From Scenedesmus sp. PABB004 (lineage: Eukaryota), in the NCBI GenBank assembly GCA_014905635.1, contig JABVCE010000017.1, positions 1-64,000 on the forward strand: a stretch of 64,000 nt of DNA. The letters run 5' to 3'. The position numbers were made by a program, and so were the translations under genes. Positions within the stretch are counted from its first letter, which is position 1. Each line of letters begins with the position of its first letter. Shown piece after piece: positions 7,843 to 62,877 of this stretch. The notes under the pieces are model-generated. The model searched no databases. It saw only the letters and a list, made by a program, of their open reading frames with translations, and was not told the DNA's origin.

Positions 7843-10800
7843 TCAGCTGCCCTGCCGCGCCCGCTTGCTCGCCGGCTGCAGCTGGGCCTGCTCCGACCGC
7901 GCCACCAGCACCTCGTCCACGCGGCCCGCCAGCCAGCGCTGCCGCTCCTCTGCGCCGCGCAGCTCTGCCCACTCAAACCAGGGCACCACCACCAGCGAGT
8001 AGCCCCGCGCCACCAGCGCCCAGTTTCTGCGCGCGCGGCGGCAGATGGGCGGGCGGGCAGCGTGTAAGCGCCGCTCACTGAGCGGGCCTGCCTGCTTGTG
8101 GGCGCGCATGAGGGCTGGCCAGCGGAGCGCCGCCGCGGCAGCGCCCGCACCTGAACAGCGTGTCTCCTGTGAGGCCGCGGCCGGGCGTCGTGAAGTGGAA
8201 AGGCCCGTCCGCCTCCACCGCCAGCCGCGCGCCGGCCGCCGTCGTGGCGGTGATGTCGACCCGGCAGGCGCCGTCCGGCGCCGCCGGCTGCTCCATCGCC
8301 GGCGGCGCCGCCCAATCCAGCGGCAGGCGCTGCAGCGCGGCAAACACCTCGCGCTGCAGCTGAGAGGTTGGCTGTTTCTGCGTCGCCTCCAGCGACGCGG
8401 CCCACGCTGCGCGGCAGGCCTCCAGCTGCTGCGGCGCCAGCGCGCCCGCCAGCCCCGGCCTCCCGCTGCCGCCAGGCAGCTGCAGGCCGCAGTCCGTCGC
8501 CCACAGCTGCACCTGGTGCAGCTGGCACAGATCCTCAGGTGCCATGGCACCCCACTGCTCGCTGGCGGCGCGCGCCAGTATCGCCAGCTCGCTTGCGCAC
8601 TGCCGCAGGTCCAGCACCGCCACAGCCCAGCAGGTGTTCGCCAGATCCTGCTCCGGCCAGCTGGTGCCCGCCTGCACCTGCGCCGCCGCCCGCCGCAGCA
8701 GCGGGCCCAGCAGCCGCTCGTCCGCGTGGCCCAGCTTGGCGCACGCCAGGGCCATGTTGGCAAAGGCTTGAGCGCTGCTGTCCGCCAGCAGCCGCTCCAG
8801 CTGAGCCGGCTGCTGCGCCAGTGCCGCGAGCAGCTGGGACGGCAGGTGACGCAGCTGCCCGCACGCCCACAGCATGTTGGACACAGCCTGGGGTGTGGCC
8901 ACGCCCAGCTGCCGCTCCAACGTCACCAGCAGCGGCTGCAGCTGCGTCTGCGGCACCTCGCGGCCCAGGGTGGCCACCGCCCACAGGGTGTTGGCCACAT
9001 CCTGGGGCTTTGCCACGCCCAGCTGCCACTCCAGCGCCGCCAACAGCTGCTCCAGCTGCGGCTGCGGCACCTCGCGGCCCATGGTGGCCACCGCCCACAG
9101 GGTGTTGGCCACATCCTGGGGCTTTGCCACGCCCAGCTGCCACTCCAGCGCCGCCAACAGCTGCTCCAACTGCGGCTGCGGCACCTCGCGGCCCATGGTG
9201 GCCACCGCCCACAGGGTGTTGGCCACATCCTGGGGCTTTGCCACGCCCAGCTGCCACTCCAGCGCCGCCAACAGCTGCTCCAGCTGCGGCTGCGGCACCT
9301 CGCGGCCCATGGTGGCCACCGCCCACAGGGTGTTGGCCACATCCTGGGGCTTTGCCACGCCCAGCTGCCACTCCAGCGCCGCCAACAGCTGCTCCAGCTG
9401 CGGCTGCGGCACCTCGCGGCCCATGGTGGCCACCGCCCAGAGCGTGTTGGCCAGCTCTTGGGGCTTGGCCGCGCCCGCCTGCCGCTCCAGCGCCGCCAGC
9501 AGCTGCTCAAGCTGCCGTTGCGGCACCGCGCGGCCCATGCTCGCCACCGCCCACAGCACGTTGGACACAGCCTGGGGCGAGGCTGCACCCAGCTGCCGCT
9601 CCAGCGCCGCCAGCAGCTGCTCCAGCTGCGGCTGCGGCACTCCGCGGCCCATTTCGGCCACCGCCCACAGCGTGTTGGCCAGCTCTTGGGGGTTGGCAAT
9701 GCCCAGCTGCCGCTCCAGCGCCGCCAGCAGCTGTTCCAGCTGCCGCTGCGGCACCGCGCGGCCCATGCTCGCCACCGCCCACAGCGAGTTGGCCACGTCC
9801 TGGGGCTTTGCCACGCCCAGCTGCCGCTCCAGCACCGCCAGCAGCTGCTCCAGCTGCGGCTGCGGCACCTCGCAGCCCATTTTAGCCGTGGCCTACAACG
9901 TGTTGGCCAGCTCTTGGGGGTTGGCTGCGCCGAGCTGGCGCTCCAGCGCCGCCAGCAGCTGCTCCAGCTGCCGCTGCGGCACCGCGCGCCCCATGGTCGC
10001 CACCGCCCACAGCGTGTTGGCCACGTTTTGAGGCGTGGCTGCGCCCGGCTGCCGCTCCAGCGCCGCCAGCAGCTGCTCCAACTGCGCCTGCGGCACCGTG
10101 CGACCCGTGGTCGCCACCGCCCACAGCGTGTTGGCCACGTTTTGGGGGTTGGCAATGCCCAGCTGCCGCTCCAGCACCGCCAGCAGCTGCTCCAGCTGCG
10201 CCTGCGGCACCTCACGGCGCATGGTGGCGACCGCCCACAGCGCATTGGCCACGTACTGAGGTGTGGCCGCGCCTTGCTGCCGCTCCAGCGCCGCCAGCAG
10301 CCGCTGCACGTCGCCCTGCTCCAGCGCCACGCCAGCCTTGGCCGCGCCGTACGCCGCGCTGGCCAGGGCCTGGGCATTGGCGCCGCGCAGCTGCTCAGGG
10401 GCCAGGAACCGCGCCAGGCAGGCCGTGAGCAGCGGCCCGTTGTAGCCGCACACGCCGGCCGCCCACACCACGTTGGACAGCTCCCGGCAGCGACACGCCT
10501 GCAGGAGCGCCGGCTGCAGCAGCTGCTCCTCCACGCGCCGCAGCAGCTGTTGCGCCGCGGCCTGGGCGGCGCTGGTGCGGATGACGCCGCGCCGCACCCA
10601 CTGGCCCAGCTGCGTGGCCGTCGCCGCAAGGTGCTGGTGCTGCATTTCCGGGCTGCCCGCGTGCTGCTCCGCCAGCTGCCGCAGCTCCGCGAGGGTGGCC
10701 GCCTCCTTGATGGCCGTCATGAGCGCGTCACGGCCCTGTCGGCGGGTGAGGCGTGCACAGCGTCAGGGCCAGGGCTGGCGCAACGGCTCCACCGCACCGG

Positions 10801-10926
10801 CTGGCCCTGCGTGCGACCAAGCACACACACCTTGCCGCCGCCAGGCGCCGCCGCCCGCTGCCAGCCCCGGCCGCCGCCGCTGCCGCCGCCCCTGCCGCCG
10901 CCCCTGGAGCGCTGGGGCCGGCCGCC

Positions 10927-10979
<53 letters not shown>

Positions 10980-11439
10980 CCCTGCCTCGCTCAGGGCTCA
11001 GGCCGCCGCGACCGCGCGCGCTGCGGCCGCCGCCCCGCGCACTGCTGCCACCGCCGCGGCCGCCCCGCGCCGGCTGGCGCCTCCCGCCGCGCCCCCGGCC
11101 TGCGTTGCTGCTGCTGCTGCTGCTGCTGCTCCCGCTGGGCTCACCGCCACCGCCAGCAGCGGCCGCGGCGCACACCCAGACCGGCGTGGCCTCGCGCGGA
11201 GACGCCAGCGGCGGCCGCGGCGCCCTGGCGGCGCCGCTGCTCGCGCGCTGGCCGGCGGGCGGCGCGCAGCACGGCCGGCGGCGCGGCGCGGCGACCGCCG
11301 CGCGGCCTCGGCAGCCCGCCGGCGCCGCTGCCCCTGGGCCGCCGGTCGGCCAGCCGCCGCCGCGCGGCCGCCCCGCCGGGGCGCCGAGGGCGCGCCCGCC
11401 GCCGCTGCTCCCCAGCGCCCGCATCGCCCCTGCCGCCAT
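7843..11439 (-). pseudogene. OPR-RAP protein copy 1 (12 core 38-aa repeats) with an in-frame TAG; exons 11439-10831, 10735-8151, 8026-7843
   Basis: Repeats of the type PQDVANTLWAVATMGREVPQPQLEQLLAALEWQLGVAK. RAP domain VDI...LAVEADGPFHF...GDTLFR|NWALVARGYSLVVVPWFEW. Transit-peptide-like N-terminus and polyQ. The Trp codon of repeat 4 is TAG (9893-9895). Confidence 0.85.
8894..10261 (-). repeat. 12 x 114-bp coding tandem repeat (OPR array)
   Basis: The period is exactly 114 nt. Units 9-11 (9008-9349) encode identical peptides. Confidence 0.95.
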
Positions 11440-12440
11440 GGGCTGCCGGGCGGCGGTGCTGCGGGCGCTCCTAGATCAAGCACCGCACGTGGCCGCCCAC
11501 GCCAGCCGCGCCAGGGCAGGGCGCGCCAGGGCAGGGCTCGCCGCCGGCAGGGCGCGGCGCGGCGCGCCCGCGCCGCTGCGCTGGGCCCGCCTCCCCGCTG
11601 CGCGCCCGGCCGCCCGGGCGGTGGCGGGCGGCAGCAGGCGCGGTGTCAGGGGTGGTCGCGGAGCGCCGGCGGCTGCGGCGGCCGCGGCGGCGCGGGACGC
11701 GCACGCGAGCGGCGGGGCGCTGCTGCTGCTGGCGAGCGGCGTGGGCTGGAGGATGTGGGGCTGGCGCACTGGCACTGGGTTGGGCTGGAGGTGGTCGCCG
11801 CACCGGGCAGAGCGCGCCGCCAGGGCCGTGTGAGCTGAACCGCCGCCGCCCCTCGTCGCGCGCTCCGGCGCGCCAGCGTTTACTCGCGCAGCGCCGCCCC
11901 CCGCTGCTGCCGTGCCCCGGACGCCTGTCGCGGCGCCTCGCCGTCCACCCCGTGCACCCCCGATTAATGTACAAGCAGCGCGCCCAGGCGGCCCTGCCCA
12001 GCGCGCCCGCCCCACGCACTCGCACACCCACACACACACACCAAGCCGCCGCGCCGCGCACGCGCGCGCCGCGGGCGCGCCCGCCACACAGGGTGCCCGG
12101 GCGCGCGCCGCGCCGCGCCGCGCTGTGCGAGCGGCACGGCGCGGCGGAGGGGGCCAGCAGCAATCAACGGGCGCGAGCTGGCGCGGCTGCCGCCGGCCCA
12201 GCCCGCGCGCTGCGCCGCAGCACCGCGCAGGCCCCCAGCCTCGCTCAGCGCTGCGCCTGCACCGGTGAGCAGCAGGCGCCGCTGCCCCGCCGCTGCCCCG
12301 CCGCTCCGCGCCGCCGAGGCGCGGCCCTGCAGCAGCAGGGCCTGCCCCCCGTCAGCGCCGCCGCTGCGCCGCGTCAGCAGCAGGAGCTGGTCTTGCGCGC
12401 CTGCCCGCCGCTCCGCCGCGCCGCCGCGTCAGCGTCAGCG

Positions 12441-13625: not shown

Positions 13626-13663
<38 letters not shown>

Positions 13664-14475
13664 CCCGAGTTCGAATCGCAGTCCCGTTGCTCACAGTCCC
13701 ATCTAACAAACAGTCCTATTCAAACACACACAGTCCCATTCAACACACTCAAGCGTTCATGCGCCCGCACCTGTATGAGGAACTCGTCGCGCCAGGTGTC
13801 GAGAGCGTCAAAGGTCTTTGTCGCGTTGACGTCATACACGAGCACGCAGCAGTCGGCGCCGCGGTAAAAGGCCACGCCGAGCGACTGGAAGCGCTCCTGG
13901 CCCGCGGTGTCCCAGATCTGGGGGCGGGGGCGCGGGGCGCGGGCGGCGGGGGCGGGTGTGAGGGGGGGAGGGCGCGGGGGGCGGCCGCGCGGCCGCGCGG
14001 CGGGGGCCGCGCCCGGCCGGCCGGCAGCTGCCCCGGCCGCGGCCCGCCGGCCCGCCGTCGGGGGGCGCTTGCCGCCGGCTGCCGGCCACGCAGCGCCGCC
14101 GCCGCCGCCGCGTGCATGCGGCGCGCAGCGGCCGCATGCTGCTGCGTCCGCGGCCGCCGCTGCCGCTGCGTCCACGCCTGCTGCGCACCTGCATCGTGAC
14201 GAGCTTGTCGTCGATCTGGATCTCCTTGGTCAGGAAGTCCGCGCCGATGGTGGCCTTGTACTCCTTGCTAAACTTCTTCTGCACGTACTGCGGCCGCGGC
14301 GGCGCGGCGCGGGGCGCGCCGCTGATCAGCGCGCCGCGCCGCCCGCCGCCGCCGGGCGCCGCGCCGCCCGCGAGCGGGCGGTCGAGGGGGGCACCTGGTT
14401 CATGAGCGACGTCTTGCCCACGCCCGAGTCGCCCAGGATGATGACCTTGAGCAGCTTGCGCTTGCGCGTCGCCAT
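12441..14475 (-). CDS. RAB7: Rab7/RabG small GTPase, multi-exon
   Basis: [49 protein letters not shown]...|[24 protein letters not shown]...|[11 protein letters not shown]...|YETSAK...|TSSCC* (C-terminal prenylation CC). Confidence 0.97.
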
Positions 14476-21338: not shown

Positions 21339-23186
21339 ATGAGCGCCCTCGAGGTGCTGCTGGCGTGGCGGCCGGACCAGGCCCTGCGGGCCGACTGGTC
21401 GGCGTGCGGCACGCGCGGCGGCGGCGGCAGCCCTGCGCAACGTCAGGGCCAGGACTGCTGGCCCGAGCACGGCAGCGGCGTCGGCGGCCGCGGCTGGCAG
21501 CAAGCGGCGGCGCCTGGCGGCGGCAAGGTGTGTGTGCTTGGTCGCACGCAGGGCCAGCCGGTGCGGTGGAGCCGTTGCGCCAGCCCTGGCCCTGACGCTG
21601 TGCACACGCCTCACCCGCCGACAGGGCCGTGACGCGCTCATGACGGCCATCAAGGAGGCGTCCACCCTGGCGGAGCTGCGGCAGCTGGCGGAGCAGCACG
21701 CGGGCAGCCTCAACCACATCCACCTGGCGGCGACGGCCACGCAGCTCGGCCAGTGGGTGCGGCGCGGCGTCATCCGCACCAGCGGCGACCAGGCCGCGGC
21801 GCAGCAGCTGCTGCGGCGCGTGGAGGAGCAGCTGCTGCAGCCGGCGCTCCTGCTGGCGTGTCGCTGCCGGGAGCTGTCCAACGTGGTGTGGGCGGCCGGC
21901 GTGTGTGGCTACGACGGGCCGCTGCTCACGGCCTGCCTGGCGCGGTTCCTGGCCCCTGAGCAGCTGCGCGGCGCCAACGCCCAGGACCTGGCCAACGCGG
22001 CGCACGGCGCGGCCACGGCTGGCGTGGCGCTGGAGCAGGGCGACGTGCAGCGGCTGCTGGCGGCGCTGGAGCGGCAGCTGGGCACAGCCAACCCCCAGGA
22101 CGTGGCCAACACGCTGTGGGCGCTGGCAACCATGGGCCGCGAGGTGCCGCAGCCGCAGCTGGAGCAGCTGCTGACGGCGCTGGAGCGGCAGCTGGGCGCG
22201 GCCAAGCCCCAAGAACTGGCCATCACGCTGTGGGTGTGCGGGCAGCTGCGTCACCTGCCGTCCCAGCTGCTCGCGGCACTGTCGCAGCAGCCGGATGATC
22301 TGGAGCGGCTGTTGGTGGCCAGCAACGCGCAAACTCTGGCCAACATGGCCCTGGCCTGCGCCAAGCTGGGCCACGCGGACGAGCGGCTGCTGGGCCCGCT
22401 GCTGCGGACGGCGGCGGCGCAGGTGCAGGCAGACGCCAGCTTGTCAGGGCAGGACCTCGCCAACACCTGCTGGGCCGTGGCGGTCCTGGACCTGCAGCAG
22501 TGCGCAGGCGAGCTGGCGGTGCTGGCGCGCGCCGCCAGCGAGCAGTGGAGCAGCACAGCACCTGAGGATCTGCGCCAGCTGCACCAGGTGCAGCTGTGGG
22601 CGACGGACTGCAGCCTGCAGCTGCCGGGCAGCGGCGGGGTGCCGGGGCTGGCGGGTGCGCTGGCACCGCAGCAACTGGAGGCCTGCCGCGCAGCGTGGGC
22701 CGCGTCGCTGGCGGTGACGCAGCAGCAGCAGCCCGGCCAGTTCCAGTGCGAGGTGTATGCCGCACTGCAGCGCCTGCCGCTGGACTGGGCGGCGCCGCCG
22801 GCGATGGAGCAGCTGGCGGCGCCGGACGGCGCCTGCCTGGTCGACATCACCGCCACGACGGCGGGCGGCGCGCGGCTGGCGGTGGAGGCGGACGGGCCCA
22901 CGCACTTCAGGACGCCTGGCCGCGGCCTCATGGGGGAGACGCTGTTCAGGTGCGGGCGCTGCCGCGGCGGCGCTCCGCTGGCCAGCCCTCATGCGCGCCC
23001 ACAAGCAGGCAGGCCCGCTCACGCGCTGCCGGCCCGCCTGCCGCCGCGCGCAGGAACCGGGCGCTGGTGGCGCGCGGCTACTCGCTGGTGGTGGTGCCGT
23101 GGTTTGAGTGGGCAGAGCTGCACAGCGCGGAGGAGCGGCAGCGCTGCCTGGCCGGCTGCGTCAAAGCAGTGCTGGCGTGGCGGTAG
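21339..23186 (+). CDS. OPR-RAP protein copy 2 (1 core repeat), intact ORF; exons 21339-21527, 21625-22949, 23054-23186
   Basis: Highly similar to copy 1 with the same two intron positions. RAP motifs LAVEADGPTHF and RNRALVARGYSLVVVPWFEW. Confidence 0.85.
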
Positions 23187-28847: not shown

Positions 28848-28878
<31 letters not shown>

Positions 28879-31800
28879 GCGGCGCGGTGCTGGCGCCGCG
28901 AGCGCCGCGGCGGCGGCAGCACCGGCGGCGGCGGCCTGGGCCGCGCGGCGTGCGCGCGCCCGCCCCCGCCCGCGCACCGAGCTCGCGCGTGACGTCGTGC
29001 CCGCCCAGCAGCGCGGTGCCGCCGCTCGGGGCAGCAGCCCAGTCATCATGTGCAGGCTCGTGGACTTGCCGGCGCCTGAGGGTATTGGGGTCGGCGGGGC
29101 GCAGGGTTTAGGTTGCCGGCGGCGACGGGCCCCAGCGGGGGGGCGCGGCGCGCAGCGGCGCGGAGCTGCAGCGGGGCGGCGCGGCGCGGCGCGGAGCGGA
29201 GCGGCTGGCCTGGCGGCGCACCGTTGGGTCCAAGCAGTCCGAAGCACTCGCCGCGCCGGATGGCCAGGTCCAGCGACGCGACCGCGAGCTGGGGGGCAGG
29301 GCGGGCGGCGGCGGTGCGCTCAGCAGGGTGGGGGCGGCGGCGGCGGCGGCGCGCTCAGCAGGGTGGGGGCGGCGGCGAGCTCAGCAGAGTGGGGCGGCGG
29401 CGCGCTCAGCAGGGTGGGGGCGGGGGCGCGCTCAGCAGGGTGGGGCGGGGGCGCGCTCAGCAGGGGCTGCGGGGAGTCAAAACCTTGCGCGCACCTTGGG
29501 CGGCTGGCCTTCGACGCTGGGAAAGGTCTTGCGCAGCCCCCGGACCACGATCGGGTGCGCCGCCAGCCCCGCCAGCCCGCCGCTGCCGCCGCTGCCGCTG
29601 CCGCCGCCGCCGCGCGCCAGCGCCTCAACGCGGCGCCGCTCCGCCGCGACGTCCGGGGGCTCGCCGCCGCCGGCGTCGCCGTTGGTCGCGCCGCCGGCGC
29701 CGCCATTGGCGTCATGCGGCGCCTGCTGCTGCTGCTGCTGCTCCCCAGACGCCGCCTTGCCCCCGGCGGCGGCGCCGCCGCCACCGGCAGCAGCGCGGCG
29801 CCGGCGGCGCCGCCGGCGGCGCGCCGCCGCGCCGGCCAGCAGCGGCGCGCGGCGGCCGCGCCGCGCGCGCCGCGGCGCCGCAGCGCCCGCGCCCGCGCCC
29901 GCCGCCGGCGCCGGTGTCGAGCGCGCGCTCCAGCCACCAGGCGAGGGCCATGAACACCACCCACTCCCCCGCCAGCACGCCCCACACCTGGGGTTGAGGG
30001 TTTTGGGCGACGGGCGGGCACCGGCGGCGCGGCGGGCGGTCGCGGGCGGCGGGGCGTCGGGGGGGGGGGGGGGGGGGGCGCCGCGCGGGAGCAACGCTCT
30101 CTCCAACCCCCACAAAAACAAACCGCGCCGGCCCCCAAAGCCCCTGCCAACCCCCAGAGCCCTGCTGGGCCCTGCTGGGCCCTGCTGAGCCCGCGGCGGC
30201 AGCAATGCGCGCCTGGGGCATGCCGTTGCCGGCGTCGCCCAGGTTGGCGAGGGCCATGCCGGCCGTGCCGCGGTACACGCCGACAAAGGCGTACTCGCCC
30301 ATCTCGTACAGGCCGCTGCGGTTTGAACGGGGTTTGAACGCGGTTTGAACGGGGGCGGGGTTTGAACGTGGCGGGTGTTTGAATGGGGAGGGGGGGGGGG
30401 GGGTGAGAATTTGAAAGGGAAAGATGAGCGCCAGCGCGCGGGGGCCGGGGCTGAGCTGCTGCTGCGGCGCACCCCCCCCCCCCGGGCGGCGCGTGCGCGC
30501 GCGCACCGGAAGAGCGCGAACGAGGGCACGAGCTGCAGCAGGCTCGCGTACCACGCGCCCGCGCTCGCGAGCTGGCCGAGCAGCAGGCTGCCGACGAGGC
30601 CGCTGCCAAAGACGAGCACGTACGCCGCGACCGCGGCGGTGCGGGCGCTGCCAAAGACGCTGCTCAGCAGGAACGCCTGCGCCGCGGGAGGGCGTGGGTG
30701 GGCGCGGGTGTGGGTGGGTGGGTGGGTGGGTGGGTGGGTGGGTGGTGGGTGGGTAGGGGGGGGGGGGCTCAGAGGCCTCCGCGGCGCCGGGGCGCCCGGG
30801 GCGAGCGCAGCGCCCCGGCGCCGCGGGCTGCGTGAGTCCCCCACGGCCATGCCGTGCCGCGCCCTGGACCCTAAACCCTGCCGCCGCGCACCTGGGCGAT
30901 GAGGTTGTTGCCAAAGAGCACGTAGAAGACGAGCTGCACCACTGCGGGGGGAGGGGTTTAGAGGGAGGCAGGGTTTAGGGCTTAGGGGCGGTTGGCTTGC
31001 TTTCTCATGTCACGTGTTGCTTGGGGTGCGGCCGCGGCGCCGCGCCACGCCCCGCGGCCGCCGCAAGGCAAAACACACGCCGCCGCGCCGCCGCCGCCGC
31101 GCCGCACCGTAGCTCGTCCGCGTCAGCAGGTTGAGCCGCACCGCGGAGCCAAAGGCCACAAACACGGCCATGTAGGCAATGTACAGGGCCCCGAACCAGG
31201 CGTACATGACGCTCCAGTAGGCGGCGTGGGAGAGGCCATGCATGCGCATCATCACGCGCAGCCCCGCCTCCTTCTCGTACACCAGCTGCACCAGGCTGGC
31301 GGTTTAGGGGGCGCACGCGCGGGGTTTAGGTGGCGGGGCAGGGCGGAGGGGTGTTAGTTTATTGTTAGTCAGGGTGTTGAGGCTGGGGTTGGAAGTGATG
31401 AGTTGAGAGGGGGGAGGGGGATTGGAAGGGTTGAGAGGCGCTGGGCGGCGCGCACCCCTGCGCGGCCCCGCGGCCCAGCTGCCGCTGCCGCGCCCCGCCG
31501 CCCTATCCCCCCCCCCCCCCCCCCCCGCCGCTCACAAGACGGGCAGCAGGAGCTGCGCGACCCAGGTGAAGAAGAGGGGGCCCAGCAGGGCGCTGAAGTC
31601 GACCGCCACGACGCTCGCCGGCTTGGGCACCTCCATCACGCCCAGCAGCTCCGCCGCGTAGCCCTCGCCTAACAGGGGTTTGATCAAAGGTTTTTGGGGT
31701 TAAAGCAGGGTTTTGGTTTTTGGGGTTAAAGCAGGGTTTTGGGTGCGCGTGGGTTAGTGGGCGTGGGCGGGGGCGTGCGGGCGTGTGGGCGCGGGGGCTG

Positions 31801-35139: not shown

Positions 35140-42436
<7,297 letters not shown>

Positions 42437-42767: not shown

Positions 42768-43765
42768 TCAGACGGCGTGCTCCCCCTCCTCACTCTCCCC
42801 GCCCTCGCCCTCGTCCGAGTCCCCCTCGTCCGTTTCCCATTCAGAGTCAGAGCCGTCGTCGGACCGCTCAGGCTGCGCCCTGATCCACGCGACGATTGCC
42901 TCGTGGCCTTCCTCGGCTGCATGACGCTCACAGAGCGAGCGAAACCACGGGCAGCCGTTGGCGCGCAGCCAGCGCAGCGCCTCCAGCTGCCCAACACATG
43001 CCCCGAAGAGGCACCCACACTCGTCCCACGGCGCGGGCTCGGCCTGCGCGCGCGCCCAGCGCAGCATCTCCAGGTCGCCGCGAATCGCGGCAAAAGTGCA
43101 CACGCGGTCGCCCCAGGGCAGCGGCGGCGTCTGGTCGCGCGCCCAGCGCAGCACCGCCATCTGCCCGTATCTGGCTGCTCCCCAACACACGCCCCGCAAG
43201 TCCAGCCCCTCGCCGCACGCCCACTCCACCACGCTAAGGTGGCCGTGCTCTGCTGCTGTCTGGCACACGCTGTCCATGCGGCAGCCGGCGCCGCGCAGCC
43301 AGGCCAGCCCCGCCACGTCGCCGCACGCCGCGCGTGCCCGCGACAGGCGGCGCTGCTGCTCCTCTGGCCCCTCCCCCACCGCCCGCCAGGCCGCCTGCAC
43401 CGCCGCCAGCGGCAGCTCGGGGCAGCTCGTCCGGATGGCTGTGGCGCCGCGGAAGCGCTCGCGCGCCGCCTTGCAGACCAGCCTGGCGTGCCACGCCTGC
43501 AGGGACGGCGGCAGGAAGCCCAGGACGTGGAGCACGAGGGCCTCGGACAGCTCCGGCACCGGGCTGCTGGCACGGTGGCGAGAGCGGGCGGGACGTGGCG
43601 GCGAGCAGTGAGGCGGCGCTGGCTGAGGCCGCTGGACCGTGCGCAGCGCCCGCCTGGCCAGGCAGCACCACCCAGCGGGCGCCAGCAGTGGCAGCGGCGG
43701 CGCGCCCACCTCGCCTCCTCCGCGAGCGTCAGACCGGCGAGCGAGACATCTGCCGGCGAGGACAT
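42768..43765 (-). CDS. Ankyrin-like repeat protein (GCPW-type) with F-box-like N-terminus and acidic tail; 2 exons
   Basis: LSEALVLHVLGFL...ARLVCK (F-box-like); repeats AAEHGHLSVVEWA, AAIRGDLEMLRWAR, GQLEALRWLRANGCPW; intron ~43564-43709. Confidence 0.8.
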
Positions 43766-44712
43766 GGCACCGACTGGGCCTGCAGGGAGCAGGGAGCAGC
43801 AGGCGGCGCGCCGGCAGTGGGTGAGAGCGCGCCAGCGGCGTGAGCGCAGCAGCAGCGGGCCCACCCCCGCCCCGGCGGCGCGGCGCAGCGCCGGGCCTGC
43901 CAGCGGCGCCGGGGAGCGCAGTCACGGCGGAACAAGCGCCACGCCCGCCCGCCCTCCGCGCCGCAGCCGCCCGCCGCCTGAACCAGGCGCCGCGCGGTGC
44001 TGCCCTCGCCGCCTGCCCCGCGCACCGAGCTCGCCTGGCGCTGCGCTGGGTGACACGGCCGGACCGTCGTGCGCCCGCAGGTCGGCGCCCCGCCTGGCCA
44101 GGGGCGCGCCGCGGGCGGGAGGCGGCCGGCGCCGCGCGGCAGCGGGCGGGCGCTGGGCGGCGCGGCGTGCGGGAGGTGCGGGCTGCGGCCGGCGTGCGTG
44201 TGCGTGCTGGCAAGGGGGGCAGAGGGCGGCGGCTGTGGGCTGCCGGGCGGCGCGGGTGGCCTCCCCGGCGGGCGGCTGGCCGGGCGGGGCCTTGGGGGGC
44301 CCTGGGCGCTGCACCGCCCGCCGCACGCCGCACGCCGGGTACTGGGCGTGTGCGCCTGACGACGGGGGGCCCACCGCGGCGACCACGTGCCGCCACCAGG
44401 ATTGACGCGGCGCGCGTTCCACGCGCGCTCTGGGCGGCCGCCGCTTGTCGCGTCGCAGCGACGTCGGCGGCGCCGGGAGGTGGGGTTCACGCTCGGGCCC
44501 GGCGCGCGGCGCCGGCCGGTCTCAAATCAATTCAACCCAGCACACCGGCCGGCGGTCAAAACACGCGGGTTCACCATGGCACACAGTCAGCACTCAACCG
44601 TCACGCCCACCCCCGCACAAAACCTGGAATGCCAGTCAGCCCGGCACGCGCCGCGCCCGCGGGGCTGGGCCTGGGGCTGGGGCGGCCGCGGCGCGGCGCG
44701 CGCGTGGCGCGC

Positions 44713-47700
44713 TCAGCCCGCGCTCGTGCCGCCCGCCGTGGCGGCGGTCTCGTCATAATCCAGCCCGCCAATGAAGTCACTGCTGGGCGGCGGCGGCGGG
44801 GCCCGGCCGCCGCCGCTGCCGCTGCCGCCGCGAGCGCGCCCGCGCCGCGCGTTGGGCGGCGGCGGCGGCGGCGGTGCGGCGCCGCAGGTGACCTGCAGCG
44901 GCACGCGCAGCTCGCGCGTGAGCCCGCGCGGCTGCACGCCCCCTGCGGCTGCAGGCGGGCGCTGCTGAAAAACTGCGGGCGCGCGGGGCGGAGCGCGTGG
45001 GCGGGCGGCGGCGGGTCGTTGGGTGCTCGCAGCGGCGGCGCTCGCAGCGGCCGCGCCCCGCGCCCCGCGCGCCTAGCCGTCGCACCTGGCTGTCGCCGCA
45101 CTGGCTGCGTGAGAAGGGCCCAAACTTCAGCGTGTAGTTCAGCTGCCGGCTGCCGCAGAGCCGCGTTTGGTTGGCGAGCGCGGAGCCGTTGACCAGCGTC
45201 GGCGCGGGCGGCAGCGCGGCGGCGGGCAGGCCTGGGCGCGCGCGTGCGGGCGGGGCGAGGCGGGGCGGGTGGTGGGCGATGCGCACGGTCGCGGCGGCAG
45301 GGGCGGTCGCGGCGAGGAGAGCCGAGGCGACGCGCGGCGGTGCGCGCGCACCCGCGAGCTGCTGCGACCGCGGCAGCGGCAGCCCCGCGCCGTCGCGCTC
45401 GCGCGCCGGCGGCAGCAGCAGGCCCGCCGGCGCGGACGGCTCGACGCCAAACGCGTCGCTCAGCAGCGCGCACTCGCCGAGCACCACGCGCGCCGCGCCG
45501 CCGCTGGGGCCCAGGTGAAGGGCGCGGCGGCGCCAAGGAACGACTTGCCGGCGAGGCTCGCCGGCGCGAGCCCGGGCGTGCCCGCGGGCGGCATAACGAC
45601 CACCGGCGCGAGCAGCCCGGGCGTGGGGTTGGTGGCGTTGAACGTGAAAGCGCAGAGGATCGTGCCCGGCGCCGCGGGCAGCGTCCAGCCGCCGCCCTTG
45701 CGCGCCGCCGAGGGCGGGCAGGCCGCCTTGACGAGCACCGGCGCCTCGGCGCCGGCGAGCGAGACCGCGACGCGCACGTCGGCGACGGGCAGCGCCGCGC
45801 CGCCGGGCGCGCCCGCCGCGACGGTGCCGGCGAGGCCGTACAGCGCGTCGGCGACGCCGGGGCGGCGCGTGGCGGTGAGCGTGAACGCGACCGCCACGCC
45901 CGCGGCGCCGCCCGCGGGCAGCGACAGCGCCGCCGCGCCCTCCTCGACGGACGACGCCGGAGGCAGCGGCGCGCCGCCGCTCGCGACCGCGGCGGCCGCC
46001 GCGGACGCGCTGCCGGCGGCGCCGCGGCCGCGGGGTCGGGCGTCGACTCGGCGACGCGCGTGGCGCGCGGGGCGCCCTTGGCGTCGAGGGCCGCCTTTGA
46101 GAGCTCCCAGGTGTGGATGGTGAAGTTGAGGGGCCGGAGGTCTCGTATCGACGCGACCGCACCGTCGGCCCCGCGGGGCAGCCGGTGAAGGTCACGCTGC
46201 CCGCCGCGAGCGCCGCGTCGTCGGCCTGCGGCGACTCCTGCGGCTGCAGCGTCGCGAGCGAGAGCACCTGCGGGGGCGGGGCGGGGCGACGGGGGCGTGG
46301 GCCAGATGTGGGGCGGGAGAGGGGCGAGGCTGGGTGCGCACGCAGAGACTCAAACAAAGAAGAGTCGAGCCCGGGTCGAACCTGGTGCGTGCCGCACTGG
46401 TCGCTCTTGACCGGCCCCGCCGTGACGCGATAGGCCCACTTCTTGTCGGCGCACACGCGCGCGTCGCGCGGAGGGCCCGGCCCGCCGCCGACCGGCGGCG
46501 CCGGCTGCAGCACGTTGGCCGCGCCGCCGCCGGCCGCCGGCGGCGCGCCGCCCGCGCTCACGCGCGCGCACGCGCCGACCTCCTGCGCCGCGCTGTCCTC
46601 GAGGTCGAACGACGCGGACTTTGAGAGCGAGCCCTCCGCCTCGGCCGTCCCGCTGCGCCCCGGCGCGGCGACGAGCGACGCGCGCACCGTGCCGCGCGCG
46701 TCGCGCGGCGTGCCCTCGGGCAGCGTTATGACAAACTGGCAGCTGATGCCGGTCGGCGACTTGGCCTCACCCGCCGGCAGCAGCGTCTCGCCGCGGGCGT
46801 CGCGCGGGCAGGTCACGCGCCCCGGCACGCCGCCGCGCGCCGGCGGCGCGGCGCGCGCCGCGTCCGCGTCGCGCGCCGGCGCGTCCGCGGCCTCCTGCAG
46901 CGCCGGCGCGGCGCCGCCGCCGCCGCCCGCGCGCGCGCCCGGCGGCAGGGCGGTGAGGTCGGCGCCGCCCGCGCCCCAGCCCGGCGGCGGCGCGTCGCCG
47001 CCGCCGTCAATCCAGGGGAACAGCTCCAGCCCGCTCAGGCCGGCCGCCTGCGGCGCCGACGCCTCCAGCAGGCCCCGCGCCGCGGCGGGCCGCGCCGCCT
47101 TTGCCGGCGAAGCCGCCTTCCCCGGCGAAGCCGCCGGCGCGCTGCGGCGCTGCCGGCTGTCGGTCGCGGCAGCGCCGCCCGGCGACGACGGCGGCGGGGC
47201 GCCCGCGCCGCCGTAGTCGTCGCCGCCCTCGTCCGCGGGCGCGGGCGGGGCAATGATGGCCTCAACCGTCACCTCGCGCACCACAAAGGGCCCGCCGCTG
47301 GGGTTGAGCAGGATCACGTTGCCGGCGAGGCGGCGGCTCGTCGACTCGACGCGCCGGCTCGCCTGCGCGCGCGAGAGAGAGTGGGAGAGAGAGAGAGAGC
47401 GAGAGCCCCAGCGTGAGCGCGTGCGGCGTGTGCGGCGGCGGTGGCGGGGCGGGCGGGCGAGGCGCCTCGGCCATGTCGGGCACCGGCGCACCGCACCTGC
47501 ACCTCCATCAGCAGCACGCCGCGCTCGCCCCACTTGGCGCTGCCCTTCTCGGCCTTGGCCGTCGCGGTCACGGCCCAGGCAAAGCGCGTGATCGCGGTCG
47601 CGCTGAGCTGGCCCATGCTCACGCGCAGCACCTGCGGCGCGGCGGCGGCGCCGCGGCGCGGGTGGCGCGCGCCGCGCGGGCGGCCGCGTGGCCGCGGCGC

Positions 47701-50700
47701 GGCAAGCTGGGCGACGCGCGGCAGTCACCACGCCGCACCTGCACCGCCGGGTTGTCCTGCTTGGGCGGCGCCGGCGCCGGCGCGGCGCCCCCGCCGCGGC
47801 GCCGCAGCTCGCCGGGTTGATGGGCAGCACCGCGGCCGTGCGCGCGGTCGCGGCCGCCGCGACCGCGGCGTCGGGCGCGCCCTGCGGCCGCACCGAGGCG
47901 GTGAGGATCGCCTGCGGGCGGGGCGACGGGAGGGGCGGGCGGCGTCAGCCGCCGTCGCACGGCCGCGGCCGCCGGCGAGCCCCAGCACGCCGCGGCGCGC
48001 GCGCCTGGTGGTCGCCGCAGGTGCTCCACGACGCGGGGGCAAAGTCGGCGGCAAAGGTGAAGCTCGCGTCCTCACACATGATCTTGCCAGCACTCGGGAC
48101 GAGCGTCCCGGTCAGCGCGCCGACGGGGCCGACCACGCGCGCCGCCGCGTCGGCGGGCGACACCGCCGCAAAGCCGCGCGCGCACGCGCCGCCGAGGGCC
48201 ACGCCCGCGCCGCGGCCCGCCGACGCGGCGGCGCCGCCGGCGAACGCGAACGGCGTCGCCGCGCTGCCGCCGCCGCGCGCGCCGGCCGTGCCGGCGGCGG
48301 TGACGCGGCCGGGGATGCGAGCGGTGACGGTGCCGTCCGCCGCGCTGATCAGCGGCACCCAGAAGCTGCGGGGGACACACGTGGCACACGGCGGGCGGGC
48401 GGGCGGCGGCGGGGCGCTGAGACCGCGCGCGCGCGTCAGGCGTGCGACGCGCCCGGCGCGGCGTGGCGCAGCGCGGCGCGGCGCGGCGCGGCGCGGGCTG
48501 CGGACGCGCCTGCAGGTGATGCTGCCGCCGCCGGGGACGCGCAGCGGCACCGCGGCGCGCGCCGTGCGGCCGGCGCAGTCGAGCGCGACGGACTTGGCCC
48601 CGTCGCCGACGCCGCCGACGACCGACAGCTCCAGCCCCGGCAGCGTGACGACCTGGCGGTTGGGGTTGGTCACCACGACCGTGCCGGCGACGTACGGCCC
48701 CGCCGCCGCGGGCGCCTTGGAGAAGGCGACGGTGAACGCGACGCGCCCGGGCGACCGGCCGTCGCCCGGCAGCGCGAGCGCGGCGGCGGGGTCGCTTGAC
48801 GCCGCGACCGACCAGAGGAAGCTGCTGCTGCTGTCGCCGCCCACACGGTACCCGGCGGCCGAGGCGACCTCGACGCTCACCGCCGACAGCGCCGCGGCCG
48901 GCGGCGGCGGCGGCGGCGCGGCGCCGGCGGCGGCGCCGGCGGCGGCGCCGTCCCCGCCGGCGGGGCGGCGCCGCCGCGTCTCGGCCGCCGGCGGCCGGGC
49001 GGCGCCGGCGCGGCCGGGCACGGGCGCGGACGCGGGGGGCTGGCCGCCGCCGGTCGCCGGCGCGGGCGCCGACGGCACGGGCGTCGTCGGGGCCGGCGCG
49101 CCGCCGCCGCTCGAGGTCGGCGGCGGAGGCGGCGGCGGCGCGCCCGTGGGCGCGGGCGTGCCGCCCGGCGCCGGCGCTGCGGCCGCGGCGGCGCGGCGGT
49201 TGGGGCGGCGCGCGGCGGTCGGGCGCTGCCGCGCGCGTGCGTGCGCGCACGCGCGCGGCCCCGCCTGGACGCACCTGGCTGCGGCACCGGCGCGGGCACT
49301 GGCGTGATTGCTGGGGTGCCCGAGGGACCCTGAGCGCGCGGGGACGGGGGCAGGGAGGAGTTGAGGTAGAGCCGCAGGTGAGCGCGCGCGCGGGGCGGGG
49401 CCTTGGACGGTCGCGCGAGCCCGCTCCGCGCGAGCGCCGCGCGCGCGAGCTCCGCGCGCACGCGCGGCCGCCCGCGCTCACCGGGACGGGCACTGGGACG
49501 GGCACCGGGACTGGCGCCGGGACCGGCACAATGACTGGCGTCCCGCCGGGCACCGGAACCGGCACCGGAACGGGCGTCGGCGTTGGGTTCGGCGTTGGCG
49601 TCGGCGTTGGATTCGGCGTCGGAGTGGGCGTGGGCGTCGGCGTTGGCGCCACGCCCGGGGGCGGCGGCGGCGGTGGAGGCGGCGGGCTCGGCGGCGGCGG
49701 GCTCGGCGGCGGCGGCGGCGGCGGCGCGACCCAGCCCGGCGGGTTGGGCGGCGGCGGCGGCGGGCTCGGCGGCGGCGGCGGCGCCGGGGGCTCGGCGGCG
49801 GCGGGGGCGGGCTCGGGGGCGGGCTCGGGGGCGCCTGGTTGGCGCAGCTGGTGATGGCGACCTTGACCTCGTTGATGGGCAGCGTGGTGGCCGGCTGCGC
49901 CGACGCAATCGGCGTCAGCGAGGGCTGCGTCTGGATCTGCGCGCCCGGGCGCGCGGCGGCGGCGGCAGGCACGCGGGCGGGCGGGGGCGGCGGTCGGTCG
50001 TAGGGGGAGGCCCATTTTTGGCGCGCGTGACGCTCCGCGGCCCCGCCCCTCGTCAATCCATGCAGATCCGCGCACCAGGAAGCTGCTGCAGGAGGTCTGC
50101 GTCGTCGAGGGCAGCGTCATGACCCAGCTAAAGTTGGCGGGGCCGCAGATGCGCGTCCCCGGCGACCCGCTCTCGGGGCGGCGCCCCGTGTCGGGCGGCC
50201 ACGCCTCCCAGGTCGGCTGCGTCGGCGTCGTCGCCTGCAGCACCGCGTCGCGCACAAACGCGCAGTCGCCGGCGAGCTGCGGCCGCGCGCGCGCGTGGGC
50301 GTGCGTGTGGGAGCGGCGACAGGTGGCGCCGTCGCTCGGCGAGCGGCGGCGGCGGCGGTTTCGCGCGCCTCCCCCGTCCCCGCGCGCGTCGCCGCACCCC
50401 GGCCGCCGTGTTGCCGCCGACCGGCTGCGCCAGGTCAAATTGGAAGTTCAGCGTGTTTGAAAGGTCGTTGCCGCCGCCGGCGGCGCCGTACGAGACGTTG
50501 GCCTGGCGCCGCGGCGGCGCGCGCGGCGGCGGGCGCGGGCGGGGTCGGCGACGGTGCTGCTGGGCGCAGCGCGCTCGCGTGCCCCCACGCACACACACAC
50601 GCCGCCCCCCGCGCGGCGGCGGCGCGCCTGCAGCTCAAAAACGCGGTTGGACGACCCCTCGCCGAGCAGGGAGCCGTTGATGCCCGCCGACTGGCTGCCA

Positions 50701-51515
50701 AAGGGGTTGGGGAACGTGAACGTGCAGTTGACGGTCGCGTTGGCCCACGCGTTGGGCGGCGACCCCGCCGCGTCGCTGACCTGCAGCAGCTGCGCGTAGG
50801 GGCAGTTTGCGGCCGCGGCGAGGAAGGTCGTGGTGCCCTGCCGTATGCCCACGGTGACGGCGTTCCACACGACCGGCGTCGTGCTGCCGGGCAGGCGGCG
50901 GAGCAGCACGTTGCCGCGCAGCGCGCCGGTGAAGGAGCTGACGATGCGCGTCGCGTTGAGCGTGTACAGCACCTGCACGCGCGTGGGTGGTGCGCGTGGG
51001 TGGTGTGCGCGTTGCGCGTGCGGCCCCACGGCACGGAGGGTCAGGGCGAGGGCGGTCGGCGGGGCGCCGGCCGGCGGCCGCCGCTCGCGCGCCGCGCCGC
51101 GCCGCCCGCGCGCGTCGCGCAGCAGCAGCCCCGGCGCCCGCCCCGCAGCCCCTCCCGACCCCGGCCGCGGCGCCGCGGCGCCAGCGCCACGCCGCTGCCC
51201 GCGCGCCTTGCGGCTCTCAAAGTAGGGGTAGCTGATCGTGCCGGTCGTGCCGTTGCTGGTCTGCTGGAGGCCCCACTGGAAGCGCACGTCGGCGACCTTC
51301 TCCGTCAGCGGCTCGATCAGCTGCACGTCCACCAGCGCCGCCCGCGCCGGCGCCGCGCCGAGCGACGCGGCGATGACGAGCGCCGCGAGCAGCAGCAGCT
51401 GCCGCGGCGGCAGCCGGCGGCGGCGGCGCGCTGGAGCCGGCGCCGCTCCTCGCTGACCGCGCGGGCGGCACGGCACCGCGCGGCAGGGGGCCGGCGTGCT
51501 GCCCTGTGACGCCAT
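44713..51515 (-). CDS. Large secreted, probably cell-wall hydroxyproline-rich glycoprotein with ~4 repeated globular modules; many exons
   Basis: Signal peptide LLLLAALVIAASLGAAPARA; SPPPP, (PT)n and (PV)n linkers at ~49480-49830; recurring F/H-x-W and Cys motifs. Contains at least one apparent indel (~46155). Confidence 0.65.
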
Positions 51516-52230
51516 GTGCGCGTTCTCAGTGCGCCTGCGGCGGCGCCGGCGGCGGCGGCGTGAGGCGGCACCGGCGGCACCGGCAGCGGGCTGCCGCTGC
51601 TGCCGCGCGCGCCCGCGCGCCGCCGCCGCCGCCGCGGCTGCCGCTGGGCCGCCGGGCGGCAGCTTCACAGCCATGCCGACCGCGGGGAGGGCCCAGGCCG
51701 CTGCTGCAGCGCCCCTGGGCCGGCCGGGGCTGCTGCGCGAGCCGCGGCCAGCTGCTCACCCCCCGCGCAACAACGCGCGCGCGGCGTGCCCGCTGGCGCT
51801 GTCAGTCGACCCGGCGTCGTCCGTCGTCACCACAACGCGGCCGCCGCTGCCTGGCGCGCCGCAGGCTCACCATGGCGCTCGCGGGAGCTGTTCCTCACCG
51901 CCCGCGCGGCAGCGCGCGTCGCATGGAGCGCGAGTGCCGACGGGACGGTCGATCGGCGTCGTAGGACCACACCGAACAAGTGCGACGGCGCGAGGGGCCG
52001 GCGCTGGCTCGGGAGGGGCGCTCGCGCCTCGGCAGGCTCGGGTGCGCGCAGGCGCGGCGTGGCGGGCCGTGCGCGTGCCACGGAGTCGTGCGTGCCGCGG
52101 CCAGCGCGCTGGAGGGCGGCCTGGGGTCCGCGCGACGGCGCGGGGCGCGGACCACCTGCTGGCCTGCCGCCGAGCACGCAGCTCAGCCCGTCGCAGCCCG
52201 CAGAGTTGTTGCCGGCAGCACCGCCGCCCA

Positions 52231-54705
52231 TCACTCACTCCCGCCGCCGGCGAGCCGCACGCGCCGCGTCCGGCCGCTCGCCCCCGCCGCGGGCGAGGCA
52301 GGCGGCGGCGCCGCCCGTGCCCCCGCCGCAGCTGCCTGCTGCTCGGTACCGCCGTCGCTCAGCTGCCGCCGCGCCCGCTTGCGCGCCTGCGGCGCCGCCT
52401 GATGCGCGCCGGGCGGCCGGCCGCGCAGCGCCGCGTCCACGCGCCCCGCCAGCCAGCGCTGCCGCTCCTCCGCGCTGCGCAGCGCGTCCCACTCAAACCA
52501 CGGCACCACCACCAGCGCGTAGCCCCGCGCCGCCAGCGCCCGGTTCCTGCGCGCGCGGCGGCAGCAAAGGCAGGCGGGCGGGCAGCGTGTGAGCGGGGCC
52601 TGCCCGCGGGCGCGCGTGTGGGCTGGCCAGCGGTGCCCAGCCGCGGCAGCGCCCGCACCTGAACCGCGTCTCCCCCGTGAGGCCGCGGCCGGGCGTCCTG
52701 AAGTGCGTGGGCCCGTCCGCCTCCACCGCCAGCCGCGCGCCGCCCGCCGTCGTGGCGGCAATGTCGACCAGGCACGCGCCGTCCGGCGCCGCCAGCTGCT
52801 CCATCGCCGGCGGCGCCGCCCACTCCAGCGGCAGGCGCTGCAGCGCGGCAAACACCTCGCACTGAAACTGGCCGGGCTGCTGCTGCTGCGTCGCCGCCAG
52901 CGCCGCCGCCCACGCCGCGCGGCAGGCCTCCAGCTGCTGCGGCGTCAGCGCGTGCCCCAGCCCCGGCCTCCCGGCACCGCCCGGCAGATGCGGGCCGCAG
53001 TCCGTCGCCCACAGCTGCACCTGGTGCAGCTGGCGCAGTTCCTCAGGTGCCATGGCACCCCACTGCGCGCTCGCAGCGCGCGCCAGCACCGCCAGCTCGC
53101 CTGCGCACTGCCGCAGGTCCAACACCGCCACAGCCCAGCACGTGTTGGCCAGCTCCTGCCCTGGCCAGCTGGCGCCCGCCTGCACCTGCGCCGCCGCCCG
53201 CCGCAGCAGCGGGCCCAGCAGCCACTCGTCCGCGTGGCCCAGCTGGGCGCAGGCCAAGGCAATGTTGGCAAGGGCTTGAGCATTGCTGCCCGCCAGCAGC
53301 CGCTCCAGCTGAGCCGGCTGGCGCACCAACGCTTCGAGCAGCTGGGACGGCAGGTGACGCAGCTGCCCGCACGCCCAGAGCGTGTTGGCCACGTTTTGAA
53401 GCGTGGCCGTGCCCAGCTGCCGCTCCAGCGCCGCCAGCAGGTGCTCCAGCTGCGGCTGCGGCACTCCGCGGCCCACTTTGGCCACCGCCCACAGCGCGTT
53501 GGCCACAGCCTGGGGCGTGGCCGCACCAAGTTGCCGATCGAGCGCCGCCAGCAGCTGCTCAAGCTGCCGCTGCGGCACCGCGCGACCCATGGTCGCCACC
53601 GCCCACAGCGTGTTGGCCACGTCCTGGGGCTTGGCCGCGCCCAGCTGCCGCTCCAGCGCCGCCAAGAGCCGCTGCACGTCGCCTTGCTCCAGCGCCACGC
53701 CAGCCTTGGCCGCGCCGTGCGCCGCATTGGCCAGGTTCTGGGCGTCGGCGTCGCGCTGCTCAGGGGCCAGGAGCTGCGCCAGGCAGGCCGTGAGCAGCGG
53801 CCCGCCGTAGCCGCACACGCCGGCCGCCCACACCACGTTGGACAGCTGACGGCAGCGGCACGCCTGCAGGAGCGCCGGCTGCAGCAGCTGCTCCTCCACG
53901 CGCCGCAGCAGCTGCTGCGCCACGGCCTGGTCGGCGCTGGTGCGGATGACGCCGCGCCGCACCCACTGGCCCAGCTGCGCGGCCGTCGCCGCCAGGTGGA
54001 CGTGGTTGAGGCTGCCCGCGTGCTGCTCCAGCAGCTGCTGCAGCCGCTCCACGCTGTCTGCGGCCTTGATCCGACTGGTGAGCTGCGCAGGGTGAAGGCC
54101 CTGTGATAAGCAGACGAGCGAGGCGCGCGGCGTCAGGGCCGGGGCCAGGGCGCGCAGCGGCTCCGCTGCACCGGCGGCCCCTGCGCGCGATCCACGCAGA
54201 CGCACCTTGCCGCCGGGCGCCACCGTGCGCTGCCAGCCCGGGCCGCCACCGCTGCCACAGCCGCTGCCGCCGCCCCTGCCGCGCTGGGGCCGGCCGCCCT
54301 CCTGCTGCTGGTGCTGCTGCTGCTGTCCCCTGCCTCGCTCAGGGGTCAGGCTGCCACCGACGCGGCCGCCCCGCGCCGGCTGTCGTCCCCGCCGCGCCCC
54401 CGGCCTGTGCTGCTGCTGCGGCTGCTGGGCTCACCGCCACCGCCAGCAGCGGCCGCGGCGCACACCCAGACCGGCGTGGCCTCGCGAGGAGACGCCAGCG
54501 GCGGCCGCGGCGCCCTGGCGCGGCCGCTGCTCACGAGCTGGCCGGCGGGCGGCGCGCAGCACGGCCGGCGGCGCGGCGCGGCGACCGCCGCGCGGCCTCG
54601 GCAGCCCTCCGGCGCCGCTGCCCCTGGGCTGCCGGCCGGCCAGCCGCCGCCGCGCGGCCGCCCCGCCGGGGCGCCGAGGCCACCGCTGCTCCCCAGCGCC
54701 CGCAT
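52231..54705 (-). CDS. OPR-RAP protein copy 3 (2 core repeats); exons 54705-54206, 54100-52659, 52546-52231; 1-nt frameshift near 54386
   Basis: Homologous to copy 1, including exon 1 and the upstream flank. RAP motif LAVEADGPTHF...RNRALAARGYALVVVPWFEW. Confidence 0.8.

Positions 54706-62846: not shown

Positions 62847-62877
<31 letters not shown>

Follow-up and report, generated by a model that had tools for sequence, protein, structure and literature searches.

A nuclear cluster of OPR-RAP genes carrying uniform 38-residue repeat arrays of differing length in the green alga Scenedesmus sp. PABB004

In green algae, the nucleus is described as regulating gene expression in organelles mainly through OPR proteins, and the repeats of these proteins are characterized, in the source passages compared, as degenerate, with a motif absent from domain databases. 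As far as such passages describe it, the closest known system to the genes reported here is the NCL (NCC-like) family of Chlamydomonas reinhardtii, in which OPR-RAP proteins with 7 to 12 repeats are encoded by 49 genes, nearly all of them on chromosome 15; the family evolves fast, its copy number depends on the strain, and NCC1 and NCC2 destabilize particular chloroplast transcripts (PMC8635915; bioRxiv 10.1101/2022.06.16.496473). Structures solved for the Chlamydomonas mitoribosome are reported to have OPR proteins binding single-stranded RNA in the inner groove (PMC8660880). The OPR-RAP genes in this report lie in a 64-kb stretch of DNA from Scenedesmus sp. PABB004 (assembly GCA_014905635.1, contig JABVCE010000017.1, positions 1 to 64,000 of the forward strand), which we call the window. 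The DNA is nuclear, comes from a member of the green-algal order Sphaeropleales, and has a G+C content of 73-83% across its entire length. The new element in these genes is a uniform repeat array that varies at two positions and recurs across several green-algal lineages.

Three OPR-RAP loci, and no others, were found in the window by tblastn with the second of them as the query. We refer to them as p1 (7843-11439, minus strand), p2 (21339-23186, plus strand), and p3 (52231-54100, minus strand, with a remnant of a first exon upstream). They are the paralogues that an earlier note, made from the DNA letters alone, had placed here, and repeat finding and the identity of p2 with a public protein agree with the search. 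Tandem Repeats Finder reported a 114-bp unit in 12.6 copies at 8864-10305 (87% matches, 0% indels, score 1981) and a second 114-bp array of 2.6 copies at 53372-53664. The period in protein is 38 residues, given both by the 114-bp DNA unit and by anchors exactly 38 residues apart, and laying out the proteins in this register gave 12 core units in p1, 1 in p2, and 2 in p3, each block between matching degenerate flank units. All six introns of the three genes are GT..AG and lie at homologous positions, one ahead of exon 2, which opens with the conserved 'GRDALM/GLHPAQ' sequence, and one within the RAP domain. The repeat counts and shared intron positions given in the earlier note therefore stand, as does its statement that unrelated genes lie between the copies (Ras, RRM, and ABC transporter by Pfam). 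Three other statements needed trimming. Near-identity of the repeats in DNA holds for units u8-u11 of p1 (95-100%) and not for the other unit pairs (75-91%); the paralogues are similar in DNA (80-92%) and less so in protein, as given below; and among what had been taken as three gene copies only p2 is intact, an in-frame TAG in p1 and a frame-broken first exon in p3 having both been missed. As a whole, the observation in that note is partly confirmed and its interpretation partly supported.

Gene p2 is the sole copy with an intact reading frame among the three in the window. Its exons (21339-21527, 21625-22949, and 23054-23186) splice to a product that is 100% identical to the public 548-residue protein HT031_004813. 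The single core OPR unit is encoded at 22090-22203 on the plus strand, and the RAP domain (residues 483-533, by Pfam) at 22882-23138 on the same strand, where it is split by a 104-nt intron at 22950-23053.

The RAP assignment proposed earlier is upheld by a match of p2 to the Pfam family PF08373 at 35.9 bits, against a gathering cutoff of 24.2 (E 7.6e-9). Exon 3 alone scored 20.8 bits for p2 and 20.3 bits for p3 against the same cutoff of 24.2, and Pfam RAP gave no match for exon 3 of p1 alone or for the N-terminal half of the domain alone. A FAST_1 match was found in p1 at 54.5 bits; Pfam scans of p1 and p2 gave no match to the FAST_2, PPR, or TAL families. Pfam holds no OPR model, and the OPR kinship was judged from a profile match described below, from FAST_1, and from the unit motifs, a 'PQ..(A/S)N.LWA' helix and a 'VPQPQL' stretch akin to the degenerate PPPEW variants reported in the passages compared from PMC12691811.

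An AlphaFold model of p2 (25 aligned sequences) reached a predicted local distance difference test score (pLDDT) of 86.4 and a predicted template modeling score (pTM) of 0.83. It has disordered residues 1-60, which would be compatible with a transit peptide, then paired helices and a C-terminal alpha/beta domain. The core unit (residues 219-256) is modeled as two helices, 220-232 and 239-251; in the unit register, helix A spans positions 2-14 and helix B positions 21-33. Foldseek matched this model to Polytomella ASA2, to mitoribosomal helical-repeat proteins of Chlamydomonas, Polytomella, Toxoplasma, and Tetrahymena, to trypanosome RESC proteins, and to the FAST1-FAST2-RAP module of human FASTKD4. 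When the family profile was compared with solved chains, the best match was Chlamydomonas mL115 (E 1.6e-25); next came RESC6, mL123, and mitoribosomal RAP proteins of Toxoplasma, and mS107 matched at E ~9e-5. The C-terminal 140 residues folded alone gave a pLDDT of 95.7, and the best match of this RAP-only model in the PDB was the FASTKD4 module 9gek (query TM score, TMq, 0.69; E 5e-5); weaker matches (E 0.04-0.3) were to Vsr, I-Bth0305I, NGO0050, McrC, Bax1, and other PD-(D/E)XK proteins. Across 25 aligned homologues, RAP residues D470, E484, P488, and G500 are invariant, and conservation is 90% or higher at D486, G487, H490, and F491. A PD-(D/E)XK-like RAP fold with a conserved Asp, and the loss of FASTKD4 function on mutation of a RAP Asp (D531A), are described in the passages compared from PMC5449608. 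The OPR-RAP label for the family is thus well supported. The model, the fold matches, the mL115 profile match, and FAST_1 argue for the alpha-solenoid of the earlier note, and the superposition on FASTKD4 with the weaker PD-(D/E)XK matches for its nuclease-like RAP fold; the predicted structure supports a solenoid of OPR/FASTK type, followed at the C-terminus by a RAP domain whose fold is PD-(D/E)XK-like. By analogy with the FASTKD4 work, the RAP domain may be an endonuclease.

Similar arrays occur in other algae. An exhaustive HMMER search of proteins returned 3102 representatives at E <=0.001, 177 of them at E <=1e-30. Uniform 38-residue arrays of ~2 to 7 units were found in Scenedesmus sp. 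NREL 46B-D3, Tetradesmus obliquus, Raphidocelis subcapitata, Monoraphidium minutum, and the prasinophyte Pycnococcus provasolii, and many metagenome proteins also carry them. A few relatives from Chlamydomonas, Trebouxia, and Cymbomonas showed no array uniformity at the 38-residue lag. Two proteins of Chlamydomonas sp. UWO 241, P0041 and P0280, have no self-identity at lag 38, yet reach 0.63 and 0.82 at one control lag; uniform repeats with a period slightly off 38 residues may be present in them. In Raphidocelis subcapitata, Rsub_04093/04097 and Rsub_06409/06414/06439 have close locus tags and shared contigs, which suggests that uniform-array OPR-RAP genes are locally clustered in this alga too. 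A full-text literature search found no description of OPR-RAP genes in Sphaeropleales or of uniform OPR arrays, and the primary NCL study, which lay outside that search, may show something similar.

At least three uniform units were present in 78 of the 272 relatives fetched, 330 units in total, after units sharing less than 60% identity with every other unit had been dropped. Mean diversity within these arrays reaches 0.74 at position 4 (bootstrap 0.69-0.79) and 0.60 (0.53-0.66) at position 1, whereas the other 36 positions average 0.235; in 49 of the 78 arrays, position 4 is one of the three that vary most. The alphabets are restricted, mainly E, A, D, N, G, H, and S at position 4 and K, N, T, S, and A at position 1. 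With helix A beginning at position 2, position 1 falls just before this helix and position 4 in its first turn. Units are 0.70-0.91 identical within an array, compared to 0.30-0.62 between genera, a difference that points to concerted evolution or to independent recent expansions. The helix-B consensus is particular to each lineage.

Gene p1 (exon 1, 10831-11439; intron, 10736-10830; exon 2, 8151-10735; intron, 8027-8150; exon 3, 7843-8026; all on the minus strand) is the twelve-unit copy. It has 1125 codons, all open except for one internal stop. The core array of twelve 114-bp (38-residue) OPR units, u1-u12, occupies 8897-10264 on the minus strand, as placed by Tandem Repeats Finder and the register layout, and within it u8-u11 (9011-9466) form a recently duplicated block in which u9 equals u11 and u10 differs from both by one base. 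The stop is a TAG in u4 (9893-9895, minus strand; codon 484 of 1125) that replaces a conserved Trp by a single-base change from TGG; Trp stands at the equivalent position in the other 14 of 14 core units, and u4 has three more private changes beside the stop. Given the TAG, p1 may be a pseudogene. The single stop, the lack of indels, and the otherwise open frames make a recently inactivated copy most likely, with a sequencing error as the main alternative. We considered TAG as a sense codon and dropped this idea, since the gene is nuclear, has spliceosomal-type introns, and shows no sign of a variant nuclear code. No match of ~100% to p1 was found among public proteins of 319-2900 residues, so no gene in that size range is annotated for p1. 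Contigs from four public DNA runs listed no difference at 9893-9895, and none crosses the array, so they are uninformative on the TAG, on array length, and on expression; they are short, mostly 90-99% alike, and probably from related organisms. The four belong to five listed DNA runs (freshwater metagenomes and one unlabeled), which contained a fraction of <=0.10 of the sampled words.

Exon 1 of p1 (10831-11439) is low in complexity and rich in Gly, Arg, and Ala, and includes a run of 16 CAG/CTG codons (poly-Gln) at 10930-10978. The N-termini of p1, p2, and p3 are unlike, yet the final codons of exon 1 ('GWQ..AAPGG(G)K') and the next intron are common to all three. Homology between p1 and p3 (~80%) continues ~450 bp upstream of the p1 start codon, at 11440-11887 versus 54706-55134; this could be a shared promoter, a 5' untranslated region, or an extra upstream exon.

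The two-unit copy, p3, has exon 2 at 52659-54100, an intron at 52547-52658, and exon 3 at 52231-52546, all on the minus strand, and its two core units lie at 53405-53632 by repeat finding and register layout. A remnant of a p1-type first exon is found upstream at 54206-54705 (minus strand) and is frame-shifted relative to p1. Here the frame opened by the ATG at 54705 runs into a stop, no ATG exists in the frame that leads to the exon-1 donor, and the lengths of the indels in the alignment with p1 are not divisible by three; p3 no longer has an intact first exon of its own. Public annotation includes p3 only within a 2808-residue chimera, 'tyrosine--tRNA ligase 1', which joins the tyrosyl-tRNA synthetase (TyrRS), p3, and downstream genes (42831-58949, minus strand).

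A fourth copy belongs to the cluster. The public protein P0050 (1481 residues), on the same contig as p1-p3, has 5 core units and is the best HMMER match. Its C-terminal part maps with 100% identity to 64000-62718 on the minus strand, which places its OPR-RAP part just past the right edge of the window. The exons at 62718-64000 (minus strand) belong to a permease-like gene, fused in this public model to the OPR-RAP copy; the gene matches PF02652, which we take to be lactate permease. Two more relatives were found in PABB004, HT031_004843 on the same contig (locus tag +30 relative to p2) and one on another contig; all copies outside the window were identified through protein searches. The cluster therefore comprises four OPR-RAP copies within ~65 kb, with more elsewhere in the genome, which bears out the local amplification claimed earlier, and array length is not invariant across copies (12, 1, 2, and 5 units).

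The p2 protein is 71-76% identical to its best-matching stretches in p1 and p3, and with the DNA identities given above the paralogues are similar, yet not very recent, copies. Unit order is partly common to p1 and P0050: u6-u7-u8 of p1 agree with u3-u4-u5 of P0050 at 35/38, 37/38, and 32/38 residues, which argues that arrays were inherited through gene duplication and later altered by gain and loss. The u8-u11 block is found among the copies only in p1. The ratio of nonsynonymous to synonymous substitution rates (dN/dS) between paralogues is 0.76-1.05 in the N-terminal flank and 0.55-0.64 in the C-terminal flank, at dS of 0.07-0.18. For the 15 core units of the window, amino acid variation is greatest at positions 1, 4, 8, 14, 18, 22, and 37, with entropy peaks at 4 and 1. 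Positions 1, 4, 8, 14, 15, 18, 22, and 37 hold 3-4 distinct nonsynonymous alternative codons each, 27 of the 45 seen in these units, and the 28 distinct synonymous alternatives fall mostly where the residue never or rarely changes. Together with a pooled nonsynonymous-to-synonymous ratio (pN/pS) of 0.50 among p1 units, the synonymous change at conserved positions indicates that the units evolved as coding sequence. The family as a whole evolves fast, a pattern that fits either diversification or relaxed constraint.

The explanation that we favor, and consider probable as a whole, is a nuclear OPR-RAP cluster, segmentally duplicated, whose arrays have diverged in length and whose proteins form a solenoid that holds organellar RNA. 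The predicted protein plan runs from a disordered N-terminus through degenerate OPR units enclosing the uniform 38-residue block to a C-terminal RAP domain. Copies would have arisen via segmental duplication, and the array lengths of 12, 1, 2, and 5 via unequal recombination or slippage in the 114-bp tandem array, with u8-u11 of p1 as the latest expansion. The proteins would then enter an organelle, probably the chloroplast or the mitochondrion, where the inner groove would hold single-stranded organellar RNA, by analogy with characterized OPR, FASTK, and helical-repeat (HPR) proteins. The RAP domain might cut the bound RNA or merely help to hold it; the strongest candidates for a part in base choice are the residues at positions 4 and 1; and unequal recombination in the array might alter the length of the reader. 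A stricter version, a modular reader with one unit per nucleotide, positions 4 and 1 setting the base, and recombination that lengthens, shortens, and reshuffles arrays and so retargets a RAP nuclease to new organellar transcripts, we consider unlikely, and the designer-nuclease reading of the earlier note is ahead of the evidence.

Several points weigh against the RNA-holding cluster as we propose it, and others against its stricter version. The longest array belongs to the gene with the premature stop, an intact first exon is missing in p3, and no RNA run was listed among the public sequencing runs matching the sequence. High dN/dS between paralogues is as compatible with relaxed constraint as with diversification. 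Since paralogues and relatives are among the 78 arrays, these do not count as independent; positions 7, 9, and 10 are held constant by the design of the anchor that located the units; and the placement of positions 1 and 4 rests on the secondary-structure register of the p2 model. The nearest relatives in sequence and fold include mitoribosomal OPR proteins, which hold rRNA ends and are not cutters. Moreover, contacts between OPR proteins and RNA in the Chlamydomonas mitoribosome are described, in the passages compared from PMC8660880, as mainly charge-based and made with the backbone, which argues against a strict base code.

These last relatives lead to the rival that we take most seriously, namely, that the cluster encodes RNA-holding or structural proteins, either mitoribosomal parts or stabilizers of transcript or rRNA-fragment ends, in which RAP is non-catalytic and the units act as a spacer or clamp. 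We regard this as possible, if clearly short of probable: mL115 is the best solved-chain sequence match (E 1.6e-25), ahead of RESC6, mL123, and Toxoplasma RAP proteins, and the fold matches are to the same set of proteins, but mitoribosomal proteins are normally single-copy and conserved, whereas here there are 1 to 12 units and fast evolution, variation is centered on two positions with a restricted polar alphabet, and the acidic RAP residues are conserved. A different kind of doubt concerns p1 itself, in that the twelve-unit array or the TAG could be an artifact of assembly or sequencing, the true gene being intact or having another unit number. The identity of u9 with u11, and the single base by which u10 departs from them, make the block easy to miscount; the stop needs only one base, TGG to TAG; and a gene with no indels and all other codons open would be unusual for an old pseudogene. 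Nevertheless, an artifact seems unlikely, given that 9 of the 12 units are distinct (75-91% identical), so that most of the array did not come from collapse or expansion, that the three further private changes in u4 mean that the stop is no lone error in a consensus unit, and that p1 is without a public protein model, as expected if the annotation pipeline met the stop too.

The array differences could also reflect neutral slippage in a decaying cluster, with copies that are mostly pseudogenes or soon will be and variable positions that are the least constrained surface residues. Broken frames in two of the three window copies, dN/dS near 1 in the N-terminal flank, and chimeric public models of p3 and the fourth copy, which leave these two without clean annotation, would all be expected of such decay. 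We nonetheless find it quite unlikely: the uniform-array architecture is kept in several genera and in Pycnococcus, conserved unit positions change synonymously and not in amino acid, the alphabets at position 1 (K/N/T/S/A) and position 4 (E/A/D/N/G/H/S) are restricted, and p2 is intact with a high-confidence predicted fold.

Near-consensus units that vary mainly at two positions provide a clean natural data set from which an OPR code might be derived, and the uniform arrays make the open question of such a code more directly testable. The position-1/4 dyads can be compared with the organelle genomes of the species that carry them, and consensus OPR scaffolds are a further option, on the model of those made for PPRs. 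The cluster is also a second, independent-looking case of a locally amplifying OPR-RAP family beside the NCL genes of Chlamydomonas. Should the modular-reader version prove true, an OPR code would for the first time come within practical reach through this family, and designed RNA binders would gain a new scaffold.

The remainder of the window holds unrelated genes. Pfam places a Ras-family GTPase gene at ~13.7-14.9 kb, a gene for an RRM protein at ~14.6-16 kb, and ABC-transporter pieces at ~27-28 kb and ~39-41 kb, all between the paralogues. These assignments come from a scan of 145 stop-to-stop open reading frames in the left 41 kb, out of a total of 249 of at least 150 residues outside the paralogues; genes in the right part were read from the chimeric public gene models. 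The TyrRS gene, at ~55.2-58.9 kb, is the upstream part of the chimeric model at 42831-58949 (minus strand), and with two chimeras seen, the gene models of this very GC-rich assembly appear prone to over-fusion. Short interstitial tandem repeats with CCCTAAA / TTTAGGG-like motifs occur at 57640-57697, 63404-63462, and 31689-31742, and resemble plant or Chlamydomonas-type telomere repeats. The window also contains a perfect (AC)56 microsatellite (40520-40632) and a 19-bp unit in 9.5 copies at 98% identity (37383-37562).

Among known systems, TAL effectors are bacterial effectors that bind DNA through units of 33-35 residues. The Scenedesmus arrays share with them near-identical tandem units, few hypervariable positions, and, probably, array length that changes by recombination, and differ in that only a minority of units are near-identical in DNA. 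Of the "TALE-like expandable repeat array" proposed earlier, then, variation at few positions and some recently duplicated units remain, and kinship does not: membership was rejected on the 38-residue period, the lack of a TAL Pfam match, and folds that match OPR, HPR, and FASTK proteins. In common with PPR proteins, which bind RNA, the family has two-helix repeats, a solenoid, and restricted polar alphabets at variable positions. PPR repeats carry their specificity residues where helix A begins and where the repeat before it ends (positions 1, 4, and ii; PMC8635915, in the passages compared), and positions 4 and 1 here may parallel these sites, although for OPR proteins no established recognition code is described in the passages compared from PMC12691811. 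The repeat is 38 residues and not 35, and this period and the lack of a PPR Pfam match rule out PPR membership.

The mitoribosomal OPR/HPR proteins (Chlamydomonas mL115-mL118 and mS107, and Toxoplasma RAP proteins), with Polytomella ASA2, are the best sequence and fold matches among solved structures, and their solenoids are described as holding single-stranded RNA in the inner groove (PMC8660880). They are stable structural subunits, and neither uniform arrays nor copy-number change is reported for them in the structure matches and passages compared. With the FASTK family (human FASTKD1-5) the present proteins share FAST_1 and RAP Pfam matches and a RAP model that superposes best on FASTKD4 9gek; unlike FASTK, they have no FAST_2 match, show regular 38-residue units where FASTK has an irregular helical region, and are algal, with many clustered paralogues.

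No protein named as a C. reinhardtii NCL was found among the 181 matches listed, which overlap and are mostly nameless and come from a word-index search that may miss distant relatives; orthology with NCL is thus not established, and the Scenedesmus expansion looks independent. In this family, units within a protein are 70-91% alike and number 1 to 12 per neighboring copy. The host order, Sphaeropleales, sets these genes apart from NCL. What they have in common with NCL is the pattern of clustered, fast-evolving OPR-RAP paralogues, represented here by four copies within ~65 kb with dN/dS of 0.55-1.05.

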